DNA of 63,273 nucleotides, counting the filler, from Folioceros fuciformis (taxonomy: Eukaryota): NCBI GenBank assembly GCA_049999805.1. It is 7 parts of 7 records of this genome, joined end to end, with 100 filler letters (N's around TTAATTAATTAA, not from the genome) between each part and the next. Parts side by side here need not be neighbours in the genome. Positions count along the whole stretch, not along the records: positions 53,525 to 58,738 come from JBNGIO010004184.1; 6 more parts are not named here. One strand, 5' to 3'. A program made the position numbers and the translations under genes. Below are positions 5,963 to 62,700 of the stretch, piece by piece (the stretch's first letter is position 1; each line of letters starts with the position of its first letter). The notes under the pieces were generated by a model that worked only from the letters and a program-made list of their open reading frames with translations, was not told where the DNA came from and made no database searches.

Positions 5963-6190
5963 AACCAACACATTCTTTCAACTTTGTGCGACACTAGCAA
6001 AACCAACACATTCTTTCAACTTTGGCTCGCACATGGACTAACCATTACACATTCTTTCAACATGGACTAACCATTACNNNNNNNNNNACATGGACTAACC
6101 ATTACACATTCTTTCAACATGGACTAACCATTACACATTCTTTCAACTTTGGCTCCCACATGGACTAACTGGCTCCCACATGGACTAACT
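5963..6190. repeat. Short tandem repeat (ACATGGACTAACCATTACACATTCTTTCA-like, ~29 bp)
   Basis: Several near-identical copies lie around a 10-N gap. Confidence 0.75.
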
Positions 6191-6562: not shown

Positions 6563-8335
6563 TTAGATCAAACCCCCAAGCATCAAGAGCAGCAAAATGA
6601 GCTTGGTGGACGGAATGATGGTGGTCTGGGAGGACGGGAACAGGGCACCCAGCGGTGGAGCAGGCGCCTGCAAATCGGCCAGCAGGCCGCAATAGAGCAA
6701 GTTTGCAGGTGGAACTTTCTCATTGCCATTTACCGCCTCGGCGCCAGCCTGCCTATCCACCACGCGCATATAGAGCTCCTGGCCCAGATACTGATTTTGC
6801 AGGAGCTGAGAGCGGATGTTCCACATTCCCGCATTGTTCAGCTCCACCTGCACCGCAGTCCAGGCGCCGGGCAGGACCTGCACTGTGGAGCGTACAACTG
6901 CATTCCACTTGTTGTACTGGCTGCGCTTATCCGGGCTCCACACTCCCTGGTCGAAGCCCAACACGAAGAAGGCGTATCCGTCCAGGTGCCATGTGTTGAC
7001 ATTGCTGTCGTTGTTCTGGAACACAATCTCGATGTTAGACTCATATTCGCCTTCGATGACGGGCACCCCCAGTACTCCAGTCCCGGAGTCATCTGGCAAG
7101 GACGGAAAGCTCCCGGGTATGAACACGTCCGGCACCTGCTTGTAGTCTGCCAGCTTCAGAGGCGTCGATGGCGCTTGGTAGGACACACCGTTCACAGCGT
7201 ACCGCTGCCGGCCTGATATCACAGGGTCAGATGCTACCAGCAGGTATGTTGCGTTGATTGGGATGCTGCCATACTTGTAAGATCCCTGCGGGTTAGGCCT
7301 GGCCGCGCCTGCGCTGAGGTTCCACGTCACAGACCGGAGCTGCTCCATAGCAAACCAGAACTGGCTGATGGAGTTGGAAAACTCATATTCGTAGGGGAAC
7401 ACGCCGACTGGTGAGACAGTCGATCCTGTATAATGCATCACAGCCACGCCAGAAACATTCCATTCCGACTGATTCACAAATCGAGGCGTCGCCACAATGT
7501 AGAAATCTGCGGGGATAGTGTAGTTAGCCGTGACCAACACAGAATAGGACTGGCCTACGTGTATGTCCAGCGAGGTGTAATTCTGCTGCGAAGTGTAGGA
7601 ACCCTCTGTCTCCACCAGCTGCATCAGATGGCCCTGTATCATGAAATTGAGACAGGTTGCAATACCGACGTTGGATATCCGAAGCCTGTAGGTTGCGCCC
7701 GAAGTCACCTCGACGGAGGTGAAATCTCCCCCGCTCCCGTAAGGCCCCTTCCCATTGATGTGAACGCCGTCGGGATACCCGAGAACCGAGCCACTGTCCA
7801 ATTGCGCCTTAAGAGCTTTGTGACTAGTTGTATACCAGTCCCCGATCAAAATGACGTAGTCTCCTGCAGGTGCGTGGAAGGGCAACGCAATTGTTGCGCG
7901 GTTGTTGATGATGATACCTCCAAACCCTCCCGCTGCTTTCTGAAAATAAGTTGTCGGGAAGTAGTAGAAGCTCCCGATCTGGTCCTTCAACTGGAACTGG
8001 TACGTCCAGTTCGTCTGAGGTTGGATAGGACAATTGGTGCCGAGGACGCCATCCTGCCACGAGTTCTTGCGCATCTGGATGCCGTCGAATGTCACCAGAA
8101 ACGGCTCGTCCAACGTGTTGATGATGTTGATCCGCAAGTTGTGGTTGGTCGTGGTGTTGATCACCGGGCCGGGGAACTCCCCGTTGATAGCAATTACCTG
8201 CTGCGGTACGCCAAGCACCGTGGCTGTGATGTAGGAAACATTCCAAAGAAAAACGTCTGTAGGATCGCCTCCACTAACGGGTTCCAGCAATGTGCACAAC
8301 AACACCAGGAGAGCCGCAACCACTTCGTTTCCCAT
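6563..8335 (-). CDS. SKU5: SKU5/SKS-family multicopper-oxidase-like protein, 590 aa, signal peptide and probable GPI-anchor tail; single exon
   Basis: Motifs GVPQQVIAINGEFPGP, RKNSWQDGVLGTNCPI, KDQIGSFYYFP, LVETEGSYT, WNLSAGAARPNPQGSY, WHLDGYAFFV and GMWNIRS. N- and C-termini are hydrophobic. Confidence 0.93.
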   Translation of the reverse strand: MGNEVVAALLVLLCTLLEPVSGGDPTDVFLWNVSYITATVLGVPQQVIAINGEFPGPVINTTTNHNLRINIINTLDEPFLVTFDGIQMRKNSWQDGVLGTNCPIQPQTNWTYQFQLKDQIGSFYYFPTTYFQKAAGGFGGIIINNRATIALPFHAPAGDYVILIGDWYTTSHKALKAQLDSGSVLGYPDGVHINGKGPYGSGGDFTSVEVTSGATYRLRISNVGIATCLNFMIQGHLMQLVETEGSYTSQQNYTSLDIHVGQSYSVLVTANYTIPADFYIVATPRFVNQSEWNVSGVAVMHYTGSTVSPVGVFPYEYEFSNSISQFWFAMEQLRSVTWNLSAGAARPNPQGSYKYGSIPINATYLLVASDPVISGRQRYAVNGVSYQAPSTPLKLADYKQVPDVFIPGSFPSLPDDSGTGVLGVPVIEGEYESNIEIVFQNNDSNVNTWHLDGYAFFVLGFDQGVWSPDKRSQYNKWNAVVRSTVQVLPGAWTAVQVELNNAGMWNIRSQLLQNQYLGQELYMRVVDRQAGAEAVNGNEKVPPANLLYCGLLADLQAPAPPLGALFPSSQTTIIPSTKLILLLLMLGGLI

Positions 8336-8701
8336 CCCTTTCCGCTCTTAATTGAACCACAGAAAGGTCAACAAATTGCAGCTGTTGCCACAAGAACTTG
8401 CACACGCTCTAGGAAAACGCTTTTCCTACTTCTGGAACAAGGGAAATCCAGGACCTGGTGTCTTAGTCTGGACAAAGAGCCTCTTGACTCCTTCTTTAGC
8501 TTCCATTCTCCGTCTAGATCCTCAGAACCAAGCCCCAGCAACAGAACACGCACCCTGCAGCACTGCCGAGCTCAATGAAGCAGAGTAGGCACATTCGCGA
8601 CNNNNNNNNNNNNNNNNNNNNNNNNNNNNNNNNNNNNNNNNNNNNTTAATTAATTAANNNNNNNNNNNNNNNNNNNNNNNNNNNNNNNNNNNNNNNNNNN
8701 N

Positions 8702-41432: not shown

Positions 41433-42983
41433 TTATTTATAGGGTTTAAACGAAGATATAATTTTGATTGACCTTGCTACAGGATAGTAACACGCTTGAG
41501 TATCAGCAGCAGATGTATGGAAAAGGAGAGGAACTATAAAAGGTTCTTTCAAAGATTTTTCTTCTACCATAATATTATCATCCATTATAAATATATTTAT
41601 GTTCTGTAAATCCATATTACTAGGAAACACAATTACAATAATTGTATATTGCACAGGCACACCATGAAAGTATGTAGTTGATATTGGTCCATCTAAGGGA
41701 ACTGATTTGATTGCCACATCCACCTTTCTTTCATCATTAACATCTCCTTCTTCACACCCACAAAGGGTTTGTTTGGTTCCATTTGCAATACCACTCACAC
41801 AATGAGCATTTGATACTATGAGATTTGTTGACGAAGTTTGCACCAGCTGTGATTGTTCTGGTTCATCTTTCTCCATGTTGTGAACTAATACTTCATCTCC
41901 TTGGTCCTCTACTTTGTAATGTGATGTTGTGTTTGATGAGATACAAGTTTCATTGGAAACATCTTGGTTTGAATAGACGACAGGTAAAGAAGATTCTTTA
42001 TGAAGAAATGTAGAGTTCATAATCAAAACTTCATCTTTATCATCTTGCAAAGTAGCACTTGATGGGAAACTTGTTGGACAATGGGTTGGTTTAAATACCA
42101 TCTGCTTTGTGTACTTAACCAAACATGTCTCATGAGAAGATTTGTCACCCATCACTTGATTCTGCCTACTTGGAGTTGATTCTGAAGAAAATCTTTTCTC
42201 CTTATTGAAAGGAAGAGAGCATTTCTTTGGTATCAAATTTGGCCTCAAAGATCCTGAATGGGTTAGCAGTGGAAAAGATGGTTCCAAATCCTCAACTTCG
42301 GTCACTAAGGGTCCTCTTGGCTTTACCCGAATACAGTGCTTACTAACATGTTTGCCTTTATACTTCATCTTTGGGAGCTTAAATTCAGCATTGAGAGGGG
42401 TTCCAAACTTTTGACCAATCCAAGTGAGTCCAAGGTCTATCAAGAATTTTTTCAAATTCCTATACCTCATAGCATGCTGAAGAATCACCATATTGAAAAT
42501 GATGTCATAAACATAACATAAATTTTGATTATGATCGGTAGAAATTAATGGGCCTGAACAACTCAAAGGACACCTTATGTTTTGCATGATATCATCTTCT
42601 TCTAAGTCTGACCTTTCCAGCATTTCCTCAACCTCTGGAGGAACTCCATTCTCCCAATCTCCAATTGTTGGTATTTTCGAAGACCCACACACATTAATGA
42701 AAACTTTAGTATTCTTCTCATCTATTGTCTTCACCACAAAAAATGGTTCAGGCATAATTTCTTCGCTTTCCTCTTCACCAATAGTATCCGTCTTTAGGTT
42801 AAGTTGGGCTTGAGTTTCTCTTAGATCCTTAGATTCTTTCAAAGCAGCCAACAATTGTTCCAACTTTACATTTTGTGGAGCCACTCCCTCATTTCGAGCT
42901 TTTTCATAGCTCATTAGCATCTTCATAATATTGTCAAGCTCTCCCGACTCCTCCTCCTCTACCAAGTTCTTTTGTGCAGCCAT
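41433..42983 (-). CDS. PIH1-domain protein (Kintoun/DNAAF2 / PIH1D-like), single exon, with a probable C-terminal CS-like domain
   Basis: PEPFFVVKT...KVFINVC...CPLSCS...VYDIIFN...FLIDLGLTWIGQKF...KLPKMKYKG matches the PIH1 consensus. First ATG (MAAQKN) is at 42983; the ORF is intact, about 516 aa. Confidence 0.85.
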   Translation of the reverse strand: MAAQKNLVEEEESGELDNIMKMLMSYEKARNEGVAPQNVKLEQLLAALKESKDLRETQAQLNLKTDTIGEEESEEIMPEPFFVVKTIDEKNTKVFINVCGSSKIPTIGDWENGVPPEVEEMLERSDLEEDDIMQNIRCPLSCSGPLISTDHNQNLCYVYDIIFNMVILQHAMRYRNLKKFLIDLGLTWIGQKFGTPLNAEFKLPKMKYKGKHVSKHCIRVKPRGPLVTEVEDLEPSFPLLTHSGSLRPNLIPKKCSLPFNKEKRFSSESTPSRQNQVMGDKSSHETCLVKYTKQMVFKPTHCPTSFPSSATLQDDKDEVLIMNSTFLHKESSLPVVYSNQDVSNETCISSNTTSHYKVEDQGDEVLVHNMEKDEPEQSQLVQTSSTNLIVSNAHCVSGIANGTKQTLCGCEEGDVNDERKVDVAIKSVPLDGPISTTYFHGVPVQYTIIVIVFPSNMDLQNINIFIMDDNIMVEEKSLKEPFIVPLLFHTSAADTQACYYPVARSIKIISSFKPYK

Positions 42984-43364
42984 TTTTCCAATCAATGTCA
43001 ACACTCCATCCTAGAAAACCTCTTAGCAAGAAAAGAGCCAAACAAGGGAAGGGTGTTTGTGTTTGTGTGTGTGTGTGCCCTAACATGCTACATGTGTTTA
43101 CAAATATTTTTGGACACTTTTGACCTAATATTATAATTAAATTATCTACAAAGAAATAACTTGTTTCATTTAGAGTAGAAACATGTGTTTGAAATTTGTT
43201 GAGAGTATTAAAAATAATAATAGATAAAAATATGATGTGTTATCATGAAATGTGCTAAGGTATAGATAGCATCAAGTACAAGACATGTTTACTGAACCAT
43301 GCAATTGAAGATATTTTTGAGATAATATCATATTAAAACAATAATACATTTTGAGAAAGCAAAG

Positions 43365-48071: not shown

Positions 48072-50289
48072 ACTTGCCCTCCCAACAGTCCACACCGGCA
48101 ACAAGCAAGAAGCAGACAGGCGTGTGCTGGAACTGCCGCCTGCCCCTTCCCTCAACACTCCACATAAAGCAGCAACAAGGAGTCCTCGGGTGTGCTGTGC
48201 TCAGATTGCCGCCTGTCCCCTGCAACAAAAGCGAGTGATCCCGACACGGAATTGCGACTCCCAAGACAACAGGATGATGTGTTACCACAAAGGGATGAAT
48301 CCTTCGCCCCGCCCCAATCCTCGCAATTCAAGACCTAACGCATGCCGGGCAAAACGCTGCCCAAGCATACGCAGCTGGTGCTATGGCTGCTATCATAGGA
48401 TCTTCATCCCACACAACACAAAAGCGGGATGAATCACGGGAGCAGCGATGTAAGTAGTCAGGAAACTTCGAGAGTGTGAAATTAATTAGCAAACTATTCG
48501 CTAGGCTGTTAATTAGTTGAGATTAAAGGACCTTTGCTTCGCACCAACGTCGCACCGCAAAAGAAAGATGAGTCCGGTTTGTGTGGCGGAAGGCGAGACT
48601 AAAATTCACTCGAGTTCCTGGACGGAACAAAGAAGCCATGCAGAAATGATGCGCATGTATCGATCTCAGGCGTCACGAAGAGGCAAGGATAGGGTTGATT
48701 GAGTATAAGCTTAAAGATTGGCAGGCTCACAGCTTACGAACAACATTGCGTCTCCAGTACTGGAAGGAAGAAGGTGTAGCACCTGAGCTTACAATACGGC
48801 AGACTTGTGATTTGTGCAAAGAGTGCCACAACGCACAACTCTTACACACAGAGTGGCATGTAAGTACGTCACTCACACACGCAAGTTGAGCCTACTGTAC
48901 AGAAGAGAGAGCGCGCGGCGCACTGATGGTTGTCCAGCATGCGCCATGCTCTTGGACGACGGTAATACACATGAACTAACTGTACAATCGCATAAAGTAC
49001 GAAGCATATGACAGAAATCAAGGCAGATGCATCTCGGAGCTTAACAGGCGGAGAGGCGAGGCCGCAAGGTGGTCAGGAAGCGCAGAATTCCGTGTCCTAC
49101 ACATTGTCCCGACGCCCGGCCTACTTCGCCCAGCGCGAGTTTCCCCCGGTGCCATTGGCAGAGTTTTGCGAATCCTTCGGAGATGTGGAGGCCGAAGGTC
49201 GGCCTACAACAGCCTTCATTACGTTGCCGCGGACCGGTTGGGGAGGATACTGGCCGCTCTGAATCTGGCCGTCGCCGTCCCTGTCCATAGTGGCGGGGAG
49301 CTGGAAGCCGGGAAGCTGGGAAGTGGAGACGGAGGGAACGGCAACAGCTCGCGACGCAGGAAGAGGGCGCGAGGCGATGGAATCGCATTTCTAATTCCTG
49401 GAGCGGGGAGAGGAGAGGGGCACGTGCGGTTCCAGTAAACCTATGAGTAGGGTGAGAAGTTTGGGTAATAAGGCCGGTTTCACAAGCCCGGTACATTTTT
49501 AGCCCGGTGGGCAATGTATATTATTTATACCTGGCATGGCCACGGTGGGGGTTTTCTGGTTCCCCATTTCACAAGACCGGTATATATTTTTACTTTGACA
49601 TCTGGTTCTACCCTCTTTCATATGGACTCATTATTTTATCCATAGGTGGATTTAAGGTTCTAGCTTAAGGCAAAAGGTGCGTCATTGCCTCTCTTTCTCA
49701 TAGGTGTGCAGCTTGGAGGTTGGAGCTTGGATTTTGAGTAGAGGGCTTCACTTAGGGTTCATCATGGATCCCCATGAACATAACTTGTGGTGTGCTTTTT
49801 TTATGGGCATCATGTTGTATATGGCATTAGAAGCTACTTCACATTCTTTGCTTTTGAATTTACGAGCTAATATTTCTACTACCCTTCATATGTTGCAATA
49901 CAATGAGACATNNNNNNNNNNAGCTAATATTTCTACTACCCTTCATATGTTGCAATACAATGAGACATGCACTAAGCAGGGGTTCACATGCACTAAGCAG
50001 GGGTTCACATGCACATAGGCGTAACCCACTTCATTGGGTCATTCAACGTTCTCAAACGTTCTTCCACAACGGCGTTCTTCCACAACGGCCTTCTGGGGAC
50101 ATACACTACAAAGTTGTTCAAGAATAGGATGCGTGTAAGTAGACCTAGCTTTGTCAATAGGATCGACTCCAGTCTACGTGCAAGTGTAGGAGAGGAGAGA
50201 GGGTGGTATTGGTGATCACAACCATGAAAACAATACACATCACCATTGTCTTACTATGGAGGTCCGAGGTCTCCATTTAAGTAGTACAT

Positions 50290-53200
50290 TTAGGGCTACA
50301 CAACTTCCAGGTTCAATATGTCGTCTGCTCGTCTGTATTGACATACACAAGATCAATAGCTCCAGATAAAATCCTTTCACGAAGAAAATGATAATGTATT
50401 TCAATGTGTTTTGTCCTGGCATGAAACACTGGGTTTCGCGCCAACTGTATGCTGCTAAGATTGTCACAGTAGATAACAACCTTGTCGTTGACCTGCAATC
50501 CAAAATCTCCGAGTAACTTACAAATCCAAGTCACTTCACACGCTGCCATTGCTGCGCCTCTGTATTCAGCTTCTGTACTAGACAAAGCCACTGTAGGCTG
50601 CTTCTTGCTACTCCATGTAATTGCTGCACTCCCAAGTGAAAAAATGAATCCACTTGCAGATCTACGATCAGTAACACTGCCTGCCCAATCTGCATGTGTA
50701 TCCACACAGGTTTATTTCTAAATCTGCAACATAAAAGAGAGCATGATCCATAGTTGCCTTCACATAGCGCAACGTTCGCCTTACTGCATCCAAATGTGGC
50801 TTTCTTGGCGCCTGCATAAACTGACTTTGCAATCCCACTGTATAGTTCAAATCTGGTCGGGATAGAGTGAGATATATCAAGCTACCCACTATCTTCCTGT
50901 ACATTGTTGGATCTTCAAGTGCTTTACCATCATGAGCACTGAGCTTTAGATTTTGATCCAAAGGAATCGAGATTGGCTTGCACTCAACCATACCATACTT
51001 AGTTAGTACATCCGACGCATACTTCCGCTGTGACAGCCAAATGCCTGTGTTGGTTCGTATAATTTCAATGCCCAAAAAGAACCTCAGTTCACCTAGGTCC
51101 GCCATCTTGAACTCTTGTTGTAGAAGTTCCTTGATCTGCTCCACTTGATCCAACTGATTACCTCCAATGATTAGATCATCCACATAAATGGTCACAAAGA
51201 CCAGTCGTTTTGTACTTTTGCACACATACAACGAATGATCCGCATCTGCCATGTTGAATCCGATGTGAATCAGATGCTGACCAAGACGCTCATGCCAAGC
51301 CCTCGGGGCTTGCTTCAGTCCGTACAACGTTCTTTTCAGCTTGCACACATGATTTGGATGATCCAAATCCTCATAACCTGGTGGCTGGTCCATGTATACT
51401 TCTTCCAGCAATTCTCCATGTAAAAACGCATTCTTCACATCCATATGATGTAGGACCCAACCTTTCGATGCCGCTAGTGCGATCACGGTTCGAATTGTTG
51501 CCATTTTGGCAACTGGACTGAACGTCTCCTCAAAATCTATTCCATATGTCTGGGCATATCCCTTGGCCACAAGCCTTGCCTTGTACCTGTTGATACTACC
51601 ATCTGCGTTGTGTTTGACCTTGTACACCCATTTGCAACCTATTGGTTTCTTGCCTTCAGGTAGTTGTACTAGGTCCCATGTTGCATTCTGATTTAACGCA
51701 TTCATTTCTTCATCCATAGCATGTTCCCACTTTGTGTCTCCAATAGCTTCTTCAAGGCTTCTTGGTTCCACATCCTGTACAACCTTTGCCATATAGGCAT
51801 GGTGCCTAGCTACATAGCTATCATAGGTCAACCGCTGTATTGGAACCTTCTGCCTTCCAGATCTCCGTGGGATTGAACCACTTCCAGGGGCTGATTGAAC
51901 TTCTTTTGCACCAGGTGTTTCGATTTTCGGTACACCGAATTCCTCATCCAAGCTCTGCTCAGAGTCGCTTGAATCATCCGCACCTGCACTTAGGTCTGGT
52001 ATCTTTGAATCTTGGACTTTTTCCTTCCCTTTGCGAGACACAGCTGTGGAGTTCGTAGGACTCACACGACCTCGCAACCTGGAACTCCATGGATTCTGAA
52101 CATTTGTCGAGTTTGATGACGCTTGCGGTCCACTCAACACTTGTGATTGTTGACCTGCATTGCTTGTTACCTCAGTTTCAAGCACATCAGCTACACTACT
52201 TCCTTGTACTTCAAAGTACCAGCTACCCATTTCATCAAAGACTACGTCTCTGCTTACTCTCATAGTCCGTGTACTGGGATTGTAGCACCTGTATCCTTTC
52301 TGTGTAACAGAATACCCAATGAAGACACACTTTTCTGCTTTTGGATCAAGCTTAGTCCGCAACTCATCCGGAATATGGACATAAGCAATGCAACCAAATA
52401 CCTTTAAGTGTGACAAGTCAGGTTTCTTCCCTGTGAACTTCTCCTCCGGTGTTACACTGTGCACCGCTGCTGTGGGAGTTCTGTTCATGATGTACACTGC
52501 TGTGCTTACAGCTTCAGCCCAATAGTAGTGAGGCATCTTCTTCTCTGTCATCAAGGCTCTCGCCACTTCTGCTATGTGCCTGTTCTTGCGCTCTGCAACT
52601 CCATTTTGTTGTGGCGTATAACGACATGAGTACTGCCGTTGAATGCCTTGTTCTGATAAGAATTTGCTGAACTCTCTGGAGAAGTACTCTCCCCCTCCAT
52701 CAGATCTTAGGCATTTGATGTGCCTACCTGTCTGCTTCTCAACCATCGCCTTGAAAGTATGAAAATGAGTGATCACTTCACTTTTTTCTTTCATGAAATA
52801 GACCCACACCTTCCTTGTGTGGTCGTCAATGAAGGTCATATAGTACTTGCAACCTCCGATTGATGCAGTCTGTGTAGGACCTCATACATCTGAATGCACA
52901 ACATCCAACACATATCTGCTGACATGTTTGTCATGGGGGAACGCATTCCTAGGCTGTTTCCCAAGTTGACATGCTTCACATATACCTTGCAGTCCATTTT
53001 CTGTAAGCTTGGGTATGCCTGTGACAACCTTCTGATGCTGCATGGACTTCAACTTCTGCACATTTACATGTCCAATGCGTTTGTGCCACATCTCTAGGTC
53101 TGTCACTACCCTTGTACCCTTCGCAAACATGGCTGACTTCAGCTTAGGAACCTCCACGTTCAAGGTGAACATCCGTCCAACCTTCTGTCCTTGAGCAATC

Positions 53201-53424
53201 AGGCGACCGCCTTTCTTGCACTCTTCAACAAAGAGTCCTACAGGTGTAAATCTAACCTGCAGTCCTTGCTCAACCATCTGCCCAACTGACACCAAGTTCT
53301 TTGTGATGTTGGGTACGTGAAGAACATCTACCAGGCACTTTACTTTGCCATCCTGCATCTTCAGAGGTACAGTTCCTGTATGCACAATTGCATGTGTTGT
53401 GTCATCTCCAGTTTCTACATATCC
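50290..53424 (-). mobile_element. Ty1/Copia pol (protease end, integrase, RT, RNase H), lightly disrupted; possible 3' LTR sequence at ~49860-50240
   Basis: VLHVPNITKNLVSV, WHKRIGH, RSDGGGEY, PQQNGVAER, CKWVYK, YKARLVAKG, YGLKQAPRAW, YVDD, SSTEAEY and RTKHIEIHYHF. Integrase precedes RT. Confidence 0.95.
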
Positions 53425-54122
53425 NNNNNNNNNNNNNNNNNNNNNNNNNNNNNNNNNNNNNNNNNNNNTTAATTAATTAANNNNNNNNNNNNNNNNNNNN
53501 NNNNNNNNNNNNNNNNNNNNNNNNTGGCCAATGGAGGTTTGGAGGTAGTGATGGGAGAGACTAAGGAAAAAAATATATAAAAATTGTAGTTATGCTTTAA
53601 GTCTGGAACAGAGGAAGAAACCATGATTGGTATGAAATGCTTGATTGTTAAATCTGGAAATTTTGATGTCATTTTGGGGACAGAGGCTTTGTTCATGCAT
53701 GGAGGAGGAGTGGATTTATGGACAGACGAGTTTTACTATGGTCTAGGGTAGCGACAAGGTGAAGAAATAAGAGTAGCAACAATTCCACTTAAGTTGCAGT
53801 TGCCGGAGGATATGCAAGATGCGTGTGTAGTGAATATGATGACTTCGTGGAATGAACAGGATGAAGAAGATGAAGATGATAGAATGTGGGTTGTGTGTCA
53901 TATGAATAAGTTATGTTTAAAAGAATATACTCATACCAGAGTGGAAGAGGATGCAATGAGAGAAAGTGTTGGTAGAGCATTAGCTAAAATTTTTAGACAG
54001 CTTGAGAAATGACAGATTGAGTTTCAGCTATATGATAAAATTCGACCTTGTACAAAGGAAGTAGTTTGTAAACTTGAATCTATGTGTAATAAACTTATAA
54101 TGTTGAGTCGTCTGAGTATGAG

Positions 54123-55080
54123 TTGGTTGTGGTTGAGCTGTTTGCTGGAATTGCATCTGGTTTGGAGGTTGTGTTGGCTGCTGGGTATGTGGTCAGGCGT
54201 TACATTTACTGTGATCCAGATGAAGTTTGTCAGGCAATTGCAAAGGCAAGAGTGTTCAAATTATGTAAGAAGTATCCTGAACAATTAAAGGTTGAAGTTG
54301 TGAAGCAAGTGTTTTCTGCTTGGCCGCAGGATGTTAGGCTTATTGGATTGATACAATTTCGATTGGAAGAAGAAATTGATCTAATCATAGCCGGTTGGGA
54401 ATGTCAAGGGCATTCAATGGCAGGCAAAGGAAAGGGCCTGTTAGATTATAGGTTAGTGTTATTTTATGAGCTAATTAGGATTTTGGATTTGGTGCAAAAG
54501 CATCAAAAGAAAGAATGTGGGTTTTTGATTGAAAATGTAACCCTAAACCCTAGATTCACAAATGGACAGAAGAATGGAATTGAAACGAGATTTTGAGGAG
54601 ATCAAGTATTATTTAGGTGAGACTATAAAGTTGGATGCAGTGCAGTTTGGATCCAGTGCTCATAGGCATCGTTGTTTTTGGAATAACATGATGCTTAAGC
54701 ATTTGTGGCAAATGCATGCGAGTCAGTGGTGTAGAGATGATGATTTGATAGTTGATCAGATATCAAATGAGGGGCGAGTGAGTAAGCAGGTGACTCCAGA
54801 TGACAGACAACCCTTTTATTGTGTAAGTAAAAAGGGTGAGCTTAGGAGGGCATTGCCGACATTTGTTAGTTTTGAAGGCACCAATGCATTTAAGGGGAAT
54901 GGACCTGAGATAATATTTGATACAAAGAGGAATGTGTGGGATGTACCATCTCCCATAGAGAGAGAGAGAGAGTGATGGGTTTTGATACAAATACTACTAA
55001 GGTGGAGGGCATAACATTTGAGTAGAGGAATAAAAAACTCGAACAAGCTATGGATTTAAATACAATTAGGTGGCTTATGA
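54123..55080 (+). pseudogene. C5 cytosine DNA methyltransferase domain embedded in the Gypsy pol (2 frameshifts, 1 stop)
   Basis: Motifs in canonical order: I ELFAGIAS, II YCDPD, III QDV, IV IIAGWECQGHSMAG, V LFYELIRIL, VI FLIENV, VIII DAVQFGSSAHRHRCFW, IX IERERVMGF, X R..LEQAMD. Confidence 0.88.
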
Positions 55081-58000
55081 TGTCTATAAAAGTTTATTAA
55101 GAGTGGAAGAAAATGTGGAAAGCTATTTTGAGCTCAAGGTTGGAAGAACGTAATTTGGGTAAAGTAAAAAGGGGCGAAGGTCTAGATGTTGGGGGGAGAT
55201 TATAAGGATGAGAGAGCATGATGATGTTTTAGGTGATGAGGGTAAACAAAACAAGTAGATGAGATATGGGACACAAATGGCAGAGGTGGAGAGGGGAGTT
55301 GGAAGTGTTGTTAGCTCAGGTTGGGAGGTCAAGGTTTGTGAGAAACAAGAACATATGGATTTTCAATGGGACATTTCTGATGAGATGACTTTGGAAGATA
55401 GGGAGGATTTTGTAAAGATTTTGGGAAGTAGCAGGCAGGTATTTGCTTTTTCCAATAAAACAATTGGGCAGGAACAAGACGTTTAAGTTTAAGATTCGGC
55501 TTAAAACTTCTGAACCGGTTTTTAGAAGGCCATATCGTTTGAGTAAACTAGAGAATGAGATTGTGGATAAGAAGTGTCAAGAGTTGCTAGAAGCTAGATT
55601 GATAAGGTCTTCGGAGTCAGAGTATGTAGCAGCTACAGTACTTCCGCCAAAGAAAGACATGCATGACAATTGGATAGAAAAGAGAATGTGTGGTGATTAT
55701 ATGCCGCTTAATGAAGTGACGCTTATGGACAAATACCCAATATTGACTGCAAAGGAAATTTTTGATGCAATTGGTGAGTGTAAGATATTTTCAACATCGG
55801 ATTTGACGGGTGGTTTTAATTAAATTGAAATTGAAGAGGAAAATAAGAAGAAGACAGCTTTTTTGGGTAATAGATGTTTGTGGGAATAGGTGGTTATTAC
55901 GTTTGGATTGAAGAATGCTCCTAGTGCTTTTTAGAGGGCGATGGACCAAGCATTGAGAGGTTTGTTGTTTACTAGGTGTTATTAAATAAATGGTGTGATA
56001 ATTTTCAATAGCAATGTGGAAGAACATAAGGAGCATGTTAGGCAAGTGTTGGATNNNNNNNNNNNNNNNNNNNNNNNNNNNNNNNNNNNNNNNNNNNNNN
56101 NNNNNNNNNNNNNNNNNNNNNNNNNNNNNNNNNNNNNNNNNNNNNNNNNNNNNNGTACCTAGTGGGACGGCACTATCTGATGTCAAGGTTGAGGCGATAG
56201 CAAAAATGATGCCACCTTAAGATGTGGGAACTTTGCGCTCCTTTTTAGAGTTGGTAAATTATTATCGCAATTTTGTGGCAAACCACAGTATGGTGGTGAA
56301 ACCTATGACAATGTTGTTAAAGAAAGATGCAGTGTGGGTTTGGGGAGAAGATCATCAGAGAGCATTTAAGGAGATAAAAGACATTTTGATGAGCAAGCCT
56401 TTATTGACAAGACCCAATTTTGACAGAAAGTTTAAGTTATATACAGGTTGGAGCAAACTTGGTTTGCGAGCAGTGCCAGCGCAGGATGATGAGAGTGGAG
56501 TGGAGCATGTGGTAGCGTATGCAAGCAGGAGTAACAATTCTGCAAAGAGTAATTATTCCTCATATCATGGAGAATGTTTGGCAACGGTATGGGCAGTATC
56601 GCATTTTAGGCCTTATCTGTATGGTACTGAATTTGAGCTGGTGATGGATCATCAACCTTTGAAGTGGTTGATGAAGATTGAAAAGTTGACAAGAAAGTTA
56701 GCAAGGTGGGCACTTATCTTGTAGGAGTATAATTTTTCTATTGAGCATAGGGCGGGAGTGAAACACGCAAATGCAGATGTGTTGTCAAGGAATCCATTAG
56801 GAAGTTTAGAAGATTCAACAGTTTCCAGGCAGGATTTTGATAAGAATGTCAGAGTTGACTGTAATTTGGTGGTGTCCAGATGGGCACCGAGTGCATACCT
56901 GGTGAATTTGGTGGAGTTGGGAGTTCCTTCGGTGTCAGTAGATGTGTGGGAAGACAGGAATACATTGGAGAGGGTGATGACCGGTGGGATTTAGGAGACG
57001 TTGTGAGGGAGAATGATAGAGTGACAAAACGAAGTAGGAGATATGTATGGGTTGACAATAAGTTATTGTTTAAGGATAACATGAAGGTGGTACCAAGACC
57101 GGAAGAAAGAATGAATTTGGGAAAAAAGATTTATGTAGAGTTAGGACATTTTGGTACAAAAAGAACAATGAGTTTACTCATGAACAGTTATTATTGGAAA
57201 GGAATGATGGAGGTAGTTGAGAAAGGTGGTGTCTACTTGTGAGGTTTGTGATAGGGTGAAAGCAAGTTTTTCAAGCAAAACTTCTCAGCTTCATCTGTTC
57301 CCTATTAGGGGGATGTTTTATAGGTGGAGTTTGGATTTGGCTGGAGAGTTACCAGTTACGCGTAGAGGTTTTAAGTATGTGTTGGTGATGATAGAACATT
57401 ACTTTAAGTGGATAGTTTTGGTGCCTTTGAGAGAGAAGAAGTCACATAACATTAAGGAAGCATTTCTTAATCATGTGTTGAGTGTTTTTGGGGCTTGTGC
57501 AGAAGTTTTGACAGATTAGGGTATTGAGTTTATGGGAGATTTTGATGAATTTTTAAATGAGTATCTTATTGATCATAGGGTAACTTCAAGGAATCACGCG
57601 AAGGCTGATGGTTCGGCAGAAAGAATGGTACAGACTTGTAAGAGTGCTTTGAGGAAGTATTGTTTGGTAATGGACAAGAGTGAGTGGGATAGGATGTTGC
57701 CATTTCTTGCAATGAGTTATAGGATGAGTAGGCAAGCATCGTTGGGAAAGTTTTCGCTATACATGTTGTTGTTTGGGTGTAGACCACAGTTGTCTGGGAT
57801 GTTAGAAGACAAGGTGAATAATATAGTGGATCTGGATGACCCTAATAAATGGTTGAAGATAGTTACACATAGAGCGGAATTGTTTAGGAGAATTATGCCT
57901 ATGGCAATGGATAACTTGTTGATAGCTCAACAGAGAGATGAGTTGAGGCACAGAAAAACAAGGAGTGGGCATTTCAGGCCTAAGGTGAAGAAGTTTGAAG

Positions 58001-58221
58001 TTGGAGAATATGTATATTTGGAGAGGAAGACAATGACAACAATTGATACGAGTGCGGGTAGGATAATATTAAGGGTGAGAAGTGTGAAGTTGAATGGAAT
58101 TTTGGAGTTGTAAAGGAAGGATGGTACAACTTGTTTGGAACACATGAAAAATTGTGCGCCATGTCATTTACCTCATTTGAATCCAATAATTGATGTGCAA
58201 GCTTTTGTGCCGAGGAAGGGA

Positions 58222-58383
58222 TTTGCTTGTACAGGTTGTGGAGATTCTGGAAGTGATCATTGCATGTTGTTGTGCGATAGGTGTAATGATGGGTGGCACA
58301 CCTTTTGTTTAGAGCCTCCACTAGAAGCAGTGGCTGATGGGCAACGGTTTTGTCCAATGTGTGTAGCAGTTGATACATTGTGA
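58222..58383 (+). pseudogene. PHD finger (Cys4-His-Cys3) at the integrase C-terminus
   Basis: CTGC...MLLCDRCNDGWHTFCLEPPLEAVADGQRFCPMC, in the same frame as the integrase ORF across one TAA (58111-58113). Confidence 0.9.
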
Positions 58384-58493
58384 GGAGCAGTGTAGTCAGC
58401 ATGTATGAATTTTGATGTTAAAGTTTGTTAATCTATCTTACCAATAAAAGATGATCAGCAGATTAAGGGGGGGAAGTGATGGTGCCACATCGA

Positions 58494-58738
58494 GGGAGGA
58501 GGAGTAGAGGAAAGCTACTCCTTTTGTCAATCTCGTGTGTAGTAAACCACCAAAGAGTGGTAGGATGACTAGTAGCCTTGGTGTGCACGATGGGGAGGAA
58601 GCCATCAAGGGGAGGCATCCATGAATTATAAGTGTGATCACTATACTCACATTAAGGGAGGAGGAGTAGAGGAAAGCTATTCCTTTCGTCGATCTCGTGT
58701 GTAGTAAACCACCAAAGAGTGGTAGGATGACTAGTAGC
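58494..58738. repeat. Direct repeat (~160-bp period) inside the Gypsy 3' LTR
   Basis: GGGAGGAGGAGTAGAGGAAAGCTA...GGTAGGATGACTAGTAGC occurs at ~58494 and ~58656. Confidence 0.8.
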
Positions 58739-59544: not shown

Positions 59545-62500
59545 GAATCACCTTGCGCTCCACAGATTAGCAAACAAAATGATGTTGGATCTCGATATGT
59601 TTGGTGCGGGCATGGAAACGGGGATTCCCAACAAGCATAATTGTTGATCTGTTGTCGCAGTAGATGATAGTTGGAGCTGGTTGAGGACAATTCAGGCTGG
59701 AGAGAAAAGTACACTCCCACTCAGCTTCCTTAGCTGAATCCGTGAGTGCCTTATACTCCGCTTCCGTGGAGGAAATAGCAATGGAGGCTTGCTTCTTCAA
59801 GCTCCAATTGACAGCAGCATTCGAAAGCAAAAAACAATAAGCTGAGATGCTTCTGCGCTGGTCAGGATCTGTTGCCCAGTCAGTATCAGCATACGCTTGA
59901 ATGGTATTGGAGTTCTCAGCTTCGTTGAATCATAACCCATAGGTGGATGTTCCCTTTAAACAGCGAAGGATACACTTCACAGCCATCCAATGGTCCTGGC
60001 CTGGGTTCTCAAGATATTGTGATACAAAGCTCACAGAATGCTGAATATCAGGCCTTGTCCAACATGCTATGTAATTCAGGCAGCCTACTGCATGACAATA
60101 AGGGATCTAACTCATGGCTGCCTTTTCTTCTTCATCTTGTGGGGATTTCCCAGCAGACAACTTCCGACCCACTATGCTTGGTGTTCTAACAGGCTTGGCA
60201 TCTACTAGGTTGAAGCGGCGAAGTGTCTCATGAACATACTTGGTCTTATGAAGAATCAAGGTATGATTTTGCCTATCGCACAGAAGCCGAACACCAAGGA
60301 CAAATGCAAGCTAACCTATGTCTTTCATGTCGTAGCGCTTGTGCAGCATGCCCTTGACCCAGTCTAAAAGATCTCTCTCGATTGTTGGAGGCTAAAATGA
60401 CGTCGTCAACATAAAGGGCTAGGATCACAATGTGTTCTCCTTTGGTATACATATATATGTTGGCGTCTGCTAGATTCTAAACGAAGCCAATAGATTTGAG
60501 GTATTTATCAATGCATTTGTACCATTCCCTTGTGCTCTGCTTAAGCCTGTAGAGAGTCTTATGGAGCTTGCAAACCCAATCTGGGTGTTCAAGATCCAGA
60601 AAACCCTTTGTCTGATGCATATAAATGTCCTCTTCTAACTCTCCGTATAGAAATGCAGTCGAGGCATCCATTTGTTTGAGATCCCAGTCACGAGCAGCAG
60701 CAAGTGCCAGCATGATTCTTATGGATTGTGTCTTCACAATAGGGCTGAATGTTTCGTTGAAGTCGACACCTACAACGTGGGAGAAACCTCGTGCAACAAG
60801 ACGTGACTTGTGACGTGCTATCTCTCCTTGTGCATTTAACTTGTGCTTGAACACCCACTTGCAGCTCACAGTTTTCCTTCCTGCAGGCAAGGGGCAGAGT
60901 TCCAGGTTTCATTTTTCATCAAAGAGTCATATTCGTCCTGGATTGATGGAATCCAGTGTTTCTTATTCTTCCCTGTGATGGCCTCTCTGTATGTGCAAGG
61001 TTCTACCGGAAAAGAAGTGTTGGATGAGAAGACCTCGCAGAGACGTGCAGACCGTGGTCGCCTAAAGTCTTCTGGCTCATAGGGTTTAGTCTACCAGTTT
61101 TCTCGAGAAGGACGAGAACAAGTAGGGTATCTTCTTTCTTCCTCTGCAGCTGGTTGTGAGAGTAATGGGACAGGTACTACAACAGCAGGTTTTGCAATAG
61201 GCATGTCTCCATCATCAGCAGGCTATGAATCAGGAGTGTCTGAATCAGATGCTACAGCTAAATCGGCTGGCTCTAAAANNNNNNNNNNNNNNNNNNNNNN
61301 NNNNNNNNNNNNNNNNNNNNNNNNNNNNNNNNNNNNNNNNNNNNNNNNNNNNNNNNNNNNNNNNNNNNNNNNNNNNNNTGACTGCTATGGGCTATGTAGT
61401 GGATGGAAAACGGACTGCTGTGATGAAGGTGGCAATTGTTCAGGGCTCTGTAAAGTCTGGTGTGGCTGCGGCTGCTGTGATATCTGTGATCCACCTCCTG
61501 AAGGGCTAGCAACTGAAACAAGTATATAAACGACAGCTGCTGGCAATTCAAACACGGCATCTTGTGGAAAAACCGAAGGGGAATCATCGAAAACAGAGGC
61601 GTTGAGAACAAAACCAGGAATTGTAGGTGAATCAGGAGTTCCAGAATTTTGATCAGCTGTAGAGTGAGAGTTGGTGATCTCCTTGAAGGTAACACTCCTG
61701 GCAAATAGAGAGGTGTGTGAAACCGGGTCATAAAGGTTGAATGCTTTGGTTTCTTCACCATAGCAGACAAAAATAAGGGGTCGTGCCCGAGCTTCAAGCT
61801 TTTTACGTTGTTCCTCATGGATGTAAGCATATGCAGGAGAGCCGAAGACACGTAAATGAAGCAAGCTAGGTTTCCTTTGCTAGAGAGCTTCGAAAGGGGT
61901 TCGATCCGGTACAGTAGAAGTAAGGAGGCAATTCAAGATGTAAGTAGCCATAACTACAGCCTTAGCCCAATATGATTTGTGAAGTCCAGACCAGGCTACC
62001 ATACTCCGAGTCATATTTAATAAGGTCTGATTACGGTGCTCTACAACGCCATTCTGATGTTGAATGTAGGGTATGCTTAGTTGCCTTCTGATGCCTTGTG
62101 AGGAAAGGTACTCGCCACGAGCTAACACAAGAGAAAATTGTGGAGATCTTCCAAGGATGATCCCCAAACCAACAGTGGTAGCCAACGGTATCCAACTGCC
62201 CTGCGCTAATCATGCTTTTTGTCAACTTTGGAACATGCCTAACATCCTTCATTATAAATGAAGATCCGTTGTCAAACCTTAGCTGCACATCACCAATGCC
62301 TGCAATCTTGCATGCGTAGTTATTTCCAAGCCGAACACATCCTTTCCTAGTAGCATCATAGGTGCTAAACCACTCCCTATGCGGAGTAACAAGGAAAGAT
62401 GCTCTCGAGTCAATTATCCAATTAGAGAGTAAGTGACTATCCACGGCTGTCAATTGTGCAGAATCTAAGGAAGAAGAGATAAGAACATCTCCATCATCAA

Positions 62501-62700
62501 CAGAATTCACCTCGTCAGACTTGATACTCAGACTTGCCTTGTTGTCGTTCTACTTCTTCTCCTTTCCTTTGTCCTTCTTGAAGTTCTCACAGTCCCTTCT
62601 GATGTGACTCTTTTTGTGACAATGATAACACTCAACATTGTTACAACTACGAGATTTGCTATAGGAAAGGCTTTGCTCCTTTTGCTTCCCATCTCAAACG
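59545..62700 (-). mobile_element. Decayed Ty1/Copia: gag zinc knuckle and protease (62130-62700) joined by a deletion to integrase-RT-RNase H (59545-62125)
   Basis: CYHCHKKSHIRRDC, WIIDS, QNGVVE, HLRVFG, CKWVFK, YVDD, SSTEAEY and RTKHIEIQHHFV. Confidence 0.88.

Follow-up and report, generated by a model that had tools for sequence, protein, structure and literature searches.

Organization of the locus

The window analyzed here, a 63,273-nucleotide stretch of DNA from Folioceros fuciformis, is divided by six N44-TTAATTAATTAA-N44 spacers into seven scaffolds, one of which, at positions 53525-58738, is an unplaced scaffold of 5214 bases with a 100-N gap inside it (56055-56154) and is the subject of this report. 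Since the scaffolds are joined by spacers, its neighbors in the window, Copia elements included, are not its genomic neighbors. Its plus strand reads, in order, aspartic protease (PR), C5-type cytosine DNA methyltransferase (DNMT), reverse transcriptase (RT), RNase H (RH), integrase (INT) and PHD finger, followed by a polypurine tract-like run and the candidate start of a 3' long terminal repeat (LTR). We consider it highly probable that what the scaffold holds is one dead copy, truncated on its 5' side, of a Ty3/Gypsy-type element that is present in many copies and in which a Dnmt3-type DNMT lies between PR and RT and a PHD finger follows the integrase. The same anatomy is found in P0330, an intact 2358-aa protein with the domain order Gag-PR-DNMT-RT-RH-INT-PHD in which Pfam recognizes an aspartyl protease, DNA_methylase, RVT_1, RNase H, integrase and PHD. 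Eight collinear tblastn stretches covering residues 708-2345 of P0330 align with the scaffold, with identities of 31% in PR, 36-45% in DNMT, 45% in RT, 49% in RH and 39-52% in INT/PHD; the search of the rest of the window with P0330 gave no further match. The features of the scaffold are:

53525-58738 (+), whole scaffold: 3' two thirds of a decayed Ty3/Gypsy-type element (spacer map; collinear tblastn match to P0330 708-2345)
53527-53790 (+), aspartic protease, C-terminal part, with 3 in-frame stops and FDVILG at 53662-53679 (31% identity over 89 aa to P0330 708-791; phmmer matches to the PR of relatives)
53791-54092 (+), PR-DNMT linker with no recognizable domain (no Pfam match for 53752-54012)
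54093-54596 (+), DNMT piece A, motifs I, IV and VI (PF00145, E 2.2e-8; alignment with relatives)
54135-54161 (+), motif I, ELFAGIASG
54390-54416 (+), motif IV, AGWECQGHS, with the catalytic Cys as Glu-Cys
54522-54539 (+), motif VI, FLIENV (ENV)
54547-54975 (+), DNMT piece B, shifted to the +1 frame with respect to piece A, with motif VIII, the target-recognition region and ALPTF at 54850-54873 (alignment; 38% identity over 138 aa to P0330 1097-1234)
54643-54687 (+), motif VIII, QFGSSAHRHRCFWNN, which includes HRHR
54957-55097 (+), DNMT piece C, read again in the piece A frame, with TAG at 55023 and TAA at 55098 (45% identity over 40 aa to P0330 1231-1270)
54957-54983 (+), motif IX, RERERVMGF
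55038-55061 (+), motif X-like, LEQAMDLN
55098-55415 (+), DNMT-RT linker with several stops (three-frame translation)
55416-56054 (+), reverse transcriptase with 4 in-frame stops, interrupted by the 100-N gap (201 aa aligned to P0330 1369-1568 at 45% identity)
56164-56991 (+), RT connection and RNase H with 2 in-frame stops (283 aa aligned to P0330 at 49% identity)
56961-58113 (+), integrase interrupted by frame changes: zinc-binding domain, catalytic core and C-terminal region (39% and 52% identity to P0330 1876-2345)
58228-58362 (+), PHD finger, C-terminal end of pol (PF00628, E 2.6e-7, 31 bits against a cut-off of 24)
58462-58476 (+), putative polypurine tract, read from the sequence, with TG directly after
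58477-58738 (+), candidate 3' LTR start, cut by the scaffold end (repeat analysis and contig depth)

PR, RT, RH and INT thus follow one another on one strand with the integrase after RT-RNase H, as in Ty3/Gypsy pol, an assignment that rests on the Pfam models RT_RNaseH and RT_RNaseH_2 and on the RVT_1 and rve domains of the intact relatives. The RNase H region (56221-56724) matches PF17917 (E 1.4e-31) and PF17919 (E 3.1e-31), and the integrase zinc domain PF17921 scores 29.9 bits against a cut-off of 25.5; the integrase core (rve), at 23.9 bits, is under its cut-off of 32.6. Pfam gave no match on the protease stretch 53527-53790, nor, at E<=0.01, on the RT piece 55416-55823, RT being recognized by similarity to P0330 instead. 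The two landmarks that the initial annotation had placed on either side of the DNMT, a protease end with FDVILG near 53670 and an RT near 55450, were located at 53662-53679 and, for the RT onset, near 55416-55449. At the C-terminus of the integrase there is no chromodomain; the PHD finger stands there instead, and the stop codon of pol lies at 58381-58383. Within the candidate LTR is a 162-bp tandem duplication (58486-58576 and 58648-58738, 95% alike). As no 5' LTR is present for comparison, the 3' LTR is put forward as a candidate.

The element is truncated inside PR at its 5' end and inside the LTR at its 3' end. Within the stretches aligned to P0330 by tblastn there are 12 in-frame stops, facing Gln (6), Trp (1), Glu (1), Ala (1) or a gap (3) in P0330, and six frame changes separate successive aligned stretches, including one over the 100-N gap. 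In the RT active-site region the translation is Y*INGV. On all three counts the copy is dead, as had been proposed on first inspection. The catalytic residues of its DNMT are still legible in a domain broken by two frameshifts and one stop. At 375 columns with at least 70% agreement among relatives, the window copy matches the consensus at 298 and departs from it at 77, the commonest single steps among these departures being G>A (16) and C>T (12); its decay is ordinary, transition-driven and affects both strands.

The methyltransferase domain is of Dnmt3 type by profile and predicted fold

The DNMT part of the element spans 54093-55097 on the plus strand. Piece A matches PF00145 with E 2.2e-8 (34.4 bits, cut-off 22), over profile positions 57-112 only because the copy is split by frameshifts. 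Frame changes occur near 54547-54596 and 54957-54975, and a single TAG at 55023. In an alignment with 15 natural relatives, pieces A, B and C, the last with its TAG at 55023 read as X, tile one family domain with the motifs in normal order. The initial annotation had described a C5-methyltransferase inside a Ty3/Gypsy-type pol, between PR and RT, with its motifs in canonical order, among them the S-adenosylmethionine-binding FAG, the catalytic Cys, ENV and RxR. The Pfam match and the collinearity with P0330 bear this out, and motifs I, IV, VI, VIII, IX and X could each be placed; motif IV has Glu-Cys in the window copy in place of the canonical Pro-Cys dipeptide.

Compared with solved structures, the decayed piece alone is ambiguous (M.HhaI 4.6e-4, DNMT3A 0.013). 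The family profile has DNMT3A as its best match (E 3.9e-24, 88.6 bits), followed by DNMT3B and DNMT3C (1e-22 to 1e-17), and DNMT3A/3B/3C make up the first 29 of the 53 rows of that search; remoter targets are chain 4onj, which we take to be a plant DRM (2.1e-11), M.HhaI (1.2e-9) and DRM2 (1e-7). Around motif VIII the profile carries a DNMT3 signature (DAaqfGSrAHRlRnyWtNL, against DAKEV-SAAHRARYFWGNL in DNMT3A), and likewise around motifs IX/X. A structure model of P0012, a natural relative with the Glu-Cys form, was built from a 32-row alignment (pLDDT 85.5, pTM 0.83), and a Foldseek search with it had DNMT3A/3B/3C chains in all 35 rows shown, the best being 6f57_D (E 1.7e-14, TM 0.80 on target). 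Unlike in DRM, the motif order is unrearranged, and the ESM Atlas label for the DNMT piece is 'DNA methylase'. By sequence profile and predicted fold, the domain is therefore classed as Dnmt3-type.

A large family in the green lineage with two domain orders

A HMMER scan of 1.84 billion representatives with piece A returned 806 matches at E<=1e-3, 271 at E<=1e-10 and 2 at E<=1e-30, many of the matched proteins being 1000-3400 residues long. A single-sequence word search among longer proteins gave 2 matches; P0330 was added by a later profile search. Mapping the window's domain pieces onto the first 162 fetched proteins yielded some match in 160. Fifty-four of these have RT/RH before the DNMT or an integrase directly after it (type B; in full form RT-RH-DNMT-INT-PHD), and 19 have PR before the DNMT or RT after it, which is the order of the window (type A); in 3 others the DNMT is followed by RH, and 82 show the DNMT alone. 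A single open reading frame (ORF) holds the order PR-DNMT-RT in P0330, P0079 and P0284, and 10 Closterium proteins show part of it. Family members usually end in a PHD finger.

An organism name was attached to 10 of the 75 proteins at E<=1e-10 in the profile search. Named members come from Mesostigma viride, Closterium (NIES-53, -54, -65 and -68), Haematococcus lacustris, Chlamydomonas eustigma, Cymbomonas tetramitiformis and Marchantia polymorpha. By architecture, all 10 named Closterium proteins are of type A and all 6 named chlorophyte proteins of type B. In the two proteins from Marchantia and the two from Mesostigma, the DNMT is preceded by roughly 620-870 residues and lies close to the C-terminus, an arrangement compatible with type A. 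The Marchantia proteins P0356 and P0358 (MARPO_0204s0011 and MARPO_0020s0163) are annotated, about 1160 aa long, and carry a transposable element (TE)-type Dnmt3 domain of the Pro-Cys form; one of the two has a sub-threshold gag match. A literature search for these two gene names found nothing.

In a FastTree tree of 145 DNMT rows, one clade of 53 (support 97) is made up of 43 type A rows, 8 of undetermined type and both window pieces, and the other, of 92, comprises 78 type B rows, 13 of undetermined type and 1 type A row on a long branch. A quick IQ-TREE run on 50 rows with no mixture model also recovers type B as one clade (95) and groups the Marchantia pair with Gag-PR-DNMT proteins (96). 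These placements and the domain order together put the window element in type A, the branch with the order PR-DNMT-RT, within a large family of the green lineage which, judging from the Marchantia proteins, reaches the annotated proteome of at least one land plant.

Metagenome scans with P0295 led to six loci (L001-L006), and a scan with P0003 found nothing. The ORFs of contig L001 are open; L003 has one frameshift in gag-PR. According to Pfam, ORF1 of L001 encodes the protease and DNA_methylase, and ORF2 the RT, RNase H, integrase and PHD. One TAG closes ORF1, ORF2 continues in that frame, and L003 has two ORFs in a matching layout. The TAG sites lie at 5083-5091 in L001 (context TAG CAG TTA) and at 4661-4663 in L003. 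The leaky stop of tobamoviruses follows the pattern UAG-CAR-YYA, which the L001 context matches; the DNMT would then be made in excess over RT and IN.

Motif IV, selective constraint and the PHD finger

The catalytic Cys is kept in 150 of the 150 unique family rows that have a residue at that position, and the Glu of motif VI in 149 of 150; motif VI Glu-Asn, motif VIII H-R-x-R and the glycines of motif I are likewise kept in the family. Immediately before the catalytic Cys, 83 of the 150 rows have Glu and 58 have Pro. Glu-Cys occurs in Closterium, Mesostigma, Haematococcus, C. eustigma, P0330 and the window, Pro-Cys in Marchantia and Cymbomonas. As both forms span both architectures and several named algae, Glu is a conserved state and not a product of decay.

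This distribution is one argument for supposing that the DNMT of this clade is something other than an ordinary writer of 5-methylcytosine in DNA, the exchange of Pro for Glu marking a changed activity or substrate (single-stranded DNA, RNA:DNA hybrid or RNA) or a non-catalytic binding role. Such a change would concern the mechanism only and leave the anatomy as described. It would also be in keeping with the inactivity in yeast of the published Klebsormidium domain (PMC5890265) and with the faster evolution of the DNMT relative to the rest of pol: between the natural type A loci L001 and L003, whose dS of about 1.3 is near saturation, the ratio of nonsynonymous to synonymous substitution rates (dN/dS) is 0.13 for DNMT, 0.03 for RT, 0.04 for RH and 0.03 for INT. 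At 0.13, the DNMT is itself under purifying selection in these two relatives. The retention of the catalytic Cys and of the residues of motifs I, VI and VIII, however, would be needless for a role confined to binding. Fold and profile, moreover, are nearest to active DNMT3 enzymes, and human DNMT3B was also negative in yeast (PMC5890265). On these grounds we regard a changed activity as unlikely, though it is the alternative that fares best.

The nearest solved relatives of the PHD finger are KDM5 PHD1 (E 7e-12 to 5e-11) and the PHD of ATXR5 (E 3.7e-10), with WSTF, BAZ2A/B, KMT2C/D, UHRF1/2, CHD4, DPF3, PHF21A and AIRE further off. Most of these read the unmodified H3 tail (H3K4me0 or H3R2).

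Sister copies and the origin of the scaffold

Three public runs contain exact matches to part of the scaffold, amounting to 0.49 (X1), 0.32 (X2) and 0.09 (X3) of sampled words; they come from one sample of one study and may be the assembly's own source. Contig pieces at >=80% identity to the scaffold number 1107 (X1), 1207 (X2) and 1539 (X3) and cover all 30 bins, most of them being 80-95% alike to it. By identity, the X1 pieces divide into 123 at >=99%, 219 at 95-99%, 413 at 90-95% and 352 below 90%. The depth of the DNMT bins in X1 (105-231) is similar to that of the RT/RH bins (80-213), and diverged contigs run from PR to the start of the DNMT (records 1 and 8) and from the end of the DNMT to RT (records 3, 4 and 5). 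None of the listed contigs covers the whole element, and contigs cannot give copy number. In the last bin, that of the candidate LTR, summed contig depth is 1012 (X1) and 1564 (X2), against about 400-650 in the two preceding bins. One run guessed to be RNA has 3 partial pieces on the scaffold.

Could the scaffold derive from an alga or another organism in the sample rather than from the labeled host? It is an isolated, unplaced 5.2-kb scaffold without host flanks, its coding strand is 11% C and 29% G against 22-26% C in the six other scaffolds, every run that matches it exactly comes from the one sample, and its nearest relatives are metagenome or run-assembly proteins. More than 1000 diverged contig pieces per run, with summed depths of about 80-1500, nevertheless fit a repeat family of the dominant genome better than they would fit a minor contaminant. 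The named Closterium proteins being all of type A and the named chlorophyte proteins all of type B, a type A element furthermore fits a streptophyte host, and the other scaffolds of the window (SKU5-like, F-box, Copia) are streptophyte-like. Contamination thus appears very improbable. That an ordinary Gypsy element came by its DNMT segment through nested insertion, capture of a host gene fragment or chimeric assembly, as the general rarity of such domains in plant Ty3/Gypsy pol and the two frameshifts bracketing piece B could suggest, can practically be dismissed given the single-ORF proteins with the same order (P0330, P0079, P0284 and, in part, the 10 Closterium proteins), the independent diverged contigs across both junctions, DNMT bins as deep as those of RT and a DNMT tree congruent with architecture. 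The one-off insertion or misassembly that sister copies without the domain would have indicated is accordingly not what the contig tables depict: many diverged contigs include the DNMT, and the scaffold is collinear with intact P0330.

The base composition of the coding strand of 53525-58738 is A 31%, C 11%, G 29% and T 29%, with a GC skew of about +0.45; C content is 22-26% in the six other scaffolds of the window and 20-25% in the related metagenome loci L001-L006. Strand-specific C-to-T hypermutation of the window copy, a possibility prompted by the 11% C and by the 6 of 12 stops at Gln, is unsupported, since in comparison with other host copies in X1 the T>C places (149) do not exceed the A>G places (206), and since G>A (16) and C>T (12) steps occur side by side among the departures from consensus. 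The C-poor coding strand seems to be common to the host's other copies of the element family.

Run X3 resembles a bisulfite-converted library in its behavior: C is replaced by T in all X3 contigs, and in none of those of X1 and X2, at 11 of the places listed, and 4 more places come near to this; all 15 are CHH sites, CHH accounting for 388 of the 565 Cs on the plus strand of the scaffold. These places are drawn from the best-supported rows, with 1271 rows beyond those. The pattern hints that the CG and CHG sites of the element family stay unconverted in X3, i.e. that they are methylated.

Proposed role of the element-borne methyltransferase

The window copy itself does nothing and is an ordinary dead repeat. 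For live members of the family, our proposal, which we put forward tentatively and rate at somewhat below an even chance, is a mechanism of self-methylation with targeting by the PHD finger. In such members the DNMT would be synthesized within Gag-Pol; some relatives would have it in an abundant Gag-PR-DNMT product ending at the single in-frame TAG, with RT-RH-INT-PHD in the same frame after it. The DNMT would then travel with the replication and integration machinery and might methylate the element's own new cDNA or its integration site, while the PHD finger would tether the integrase to chromatin devoid of H3K4 methylation. The outcome would be a copy that arrives pre-marked in silent chromatin. 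Self-methylation of cDNA or of the insertion site was put forward as a hypothesis in the 2018 description of the Klebsormidium nitens element (PMC5890265).

Several observations weigh against parts of this interpretation. Any activity of the family's DNMT is a prediction from sequence and a structure model, and the one published test of a Klebsormidium Gypsy DNMT, in yeast, detected no methylation (PMC5890265). Nor can ordinary DNA methylation be taken for granted, since 83 of 150 rows, like the window copy, carry Glu instead of Pro in motif IV. Placement of the window DNMT inside type A is weakly supported in the 50-row tree, and the smallest starred sets give none. The window copy is dead and lacks gag, a 5' LTR and host flanks, the runs that match it exactly are those of a single sample of one study, and no K. 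nitens sequence was present among the matches whose names were looked up or shown. What likelihood is left once self-methylation and a changed activity have been given their shares falls to roles not yet imagined.

A wider scenario would join several of these strands. In it, the Klebsormidium element is the tip of an old Gypsy-DNMT3-PHD clade spanning the green lineage, in which the chlorophyte (RT-RH-DNMT-INT-PHD) and streptophyte (PR-DNMT-RT-RH-INT-PHD) forms diverged early on. The clade would have survived into Marchantia and possibly into the host of the window and would have acquired a changed enzyme chemistry, marked by the conserved Pro-to-Glu switch; its substrate at the stage of reverse transcription might, for instance, be single-stranded cDNA or RNA:DNA hybrids instead of chromatin DNA. 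We think this combination doubtful as a whole.

Cytosine methylation is the main means of transposon silencing in plants, and a transposon that carries the writer itself reverses the usual picture. The idea has been published for one charophyte and for dinoflagellates (PMC5890265). What is new here is that the family is large (271 clusters at E<=1e-10), has named members in chlorophytes, Mesostigma, Closterium and Marchantia, occurs in two domain orders, usually ends in a PHD finger and is mostly of the Glu-Cys form. The locus in the window led to evidence that the family is large and old in the green lineage and present in at least one land-plant proteome, and that a DNMT writer is paired with a histone-reader finger on the integrase and has a mostly non-canonical catalytic loop. 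These points bear on whether the elements self-silence, camouflage their cDNA or act otherwise. The interest lies in the family, with its breadth, its two domain orders, its pairing of DNMT and PHD finger and its Glu-Cys loop, and not in the dead window copy.

Other scaffolds of the window

Genes of streptophyte type are found on the remaining scaffolds, namely an SKU5-like multicopper oxidase, an F-box gene, a cysteine synthase and an ORF with a PIH1 domain, along with Copia elements. They point to a streptophyte host, probably one outside the seed plants. An Rfam scan of the window gave 0 matches. Features of these scaffolds include the following:

6563-8347 (-), intronless 594-aa SKU5-like multicopper oxidase ORF
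41433-43010 (-), intronless 525-aa ORF encoding a PIH1 N-terminal domain (E 1e-28); local GC content about 35%
50313-53424 (-), Ty1/Copia-type element with a 737-aa open pol stretch
59567-62549 (-), decayed Ty1/Copia-type element with a 100-N gap within

The best identity of the SKU5-like ORF among the 120 of 4225 matches listed is 57%, to a lycophyte, and in a 36-row tree without bryophyte or algal rows it sits at the lycophyte/euphyllophyte split with a branch length of 1.05. The ORF could represent a retrocopy or a divergent paralogue. The 10-N gaps at 6078-6087 and 49912-49921 have the same short sequence on both sides, which looks like a gap-filling artefact.

Comparison with known systems

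The initial annotation mentioned reports of DNMT-bearing retrotransposons in dinoflagellates and charophytes, correctly so. In Klebsormidium nitens an LTR Gypsy element has a Dnmt3-type domain inside its Pol ORF with Ka/Ks <0.2, and in Symbiodinium there are independent DIRS and LINE cases with Dnmt3-type domains (de Mendoza et al. 2018, PMC5890265). In the yeast assay described there, SymbioDIRS domains methylated CG de novo and the Klebsormidium Gypsy DNMT gave no detectable methylation, a negative that the authors call inconclusive because human DNMT3B also failed (PMC5890265). A 2026 preprint that mentions 'streptophytes (Gypsy-DNMT3)' cites only the 2018 paper, in the part of it available. 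With a predicted Dnmt3-type domain inside the Pol ORF of a Gypsy-type element, the window element is best assigned to this published kind, Gypsy-DNMT3, and not to a new category. Our literature search, in which few subscription journals were covered, found such elements described neither from land plants nor from Zygnematophyceae or chlorophytes. The notion of a first for land plants is not supported, the kind having been published for a streptophyte alga and Marchantia polymorpha proteins already carrying the same TE-type domain.

The closest likeness is to KnitGypsy-Dnmt3, with which the window element has in common an LTR Gypsy-type backbone, an unrearranged Dnmt3-type domain in the Pol ORF, the absence of introns, multiple copies, a streptophyte setting and purifying selection on the DNMT (Ka/Ks <0.2 there, dN/dS 0.13 between two relatives here). 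This comparison was made by the text of the paper alone, its domain order, PHD and motif IV state being shown in Fig. 4c and Supplementary Fig. 13a (PMC5890265). The paper also notes a DIRS-like repeat arrangement in that element; the scaffold here is without its 5' end. As no Klebsormidium sequence appeared in our searches, kinship with the published elements is deduced from the shared kind. SymbioDIRS-Dnmt3 likewise has a Dnmt3-type domain in a retroelement Pol and two coexisting domain orders, and its CG activity was demonstrated in yeast; it differs, however, in its DIRS backbone, in having a tyrosine recombinase rather than a DDE integrase and in its dinoflagellate host, and the authors regard the acquisition as independent (PMC5890265).

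Among host enzymes, DNMT3A/3B/3C are the nearest both by profile (best match E 3.9e-24) and by fold (best match TM 0.77-0.82 on target), and the motif VIII and IX/X signatures are held in common with the family profile. DNMT3A has S-P-C-N in motif IV, in contrast to G-W-E-C-Q here, and, unlike these enzymes, the element's domain is without PWWP or ADD and is embedded in a retroelement polyprotein. Chromoviruses, finally, resemble the element in fusing a chromatin-reader module to the C-terminus of the integrase, presumably directing integration; the module is a chromodomain in their case and, here, a PHD finger (PF00628) near those of KDM5 PHD1, ATXR5 and BAZ2.

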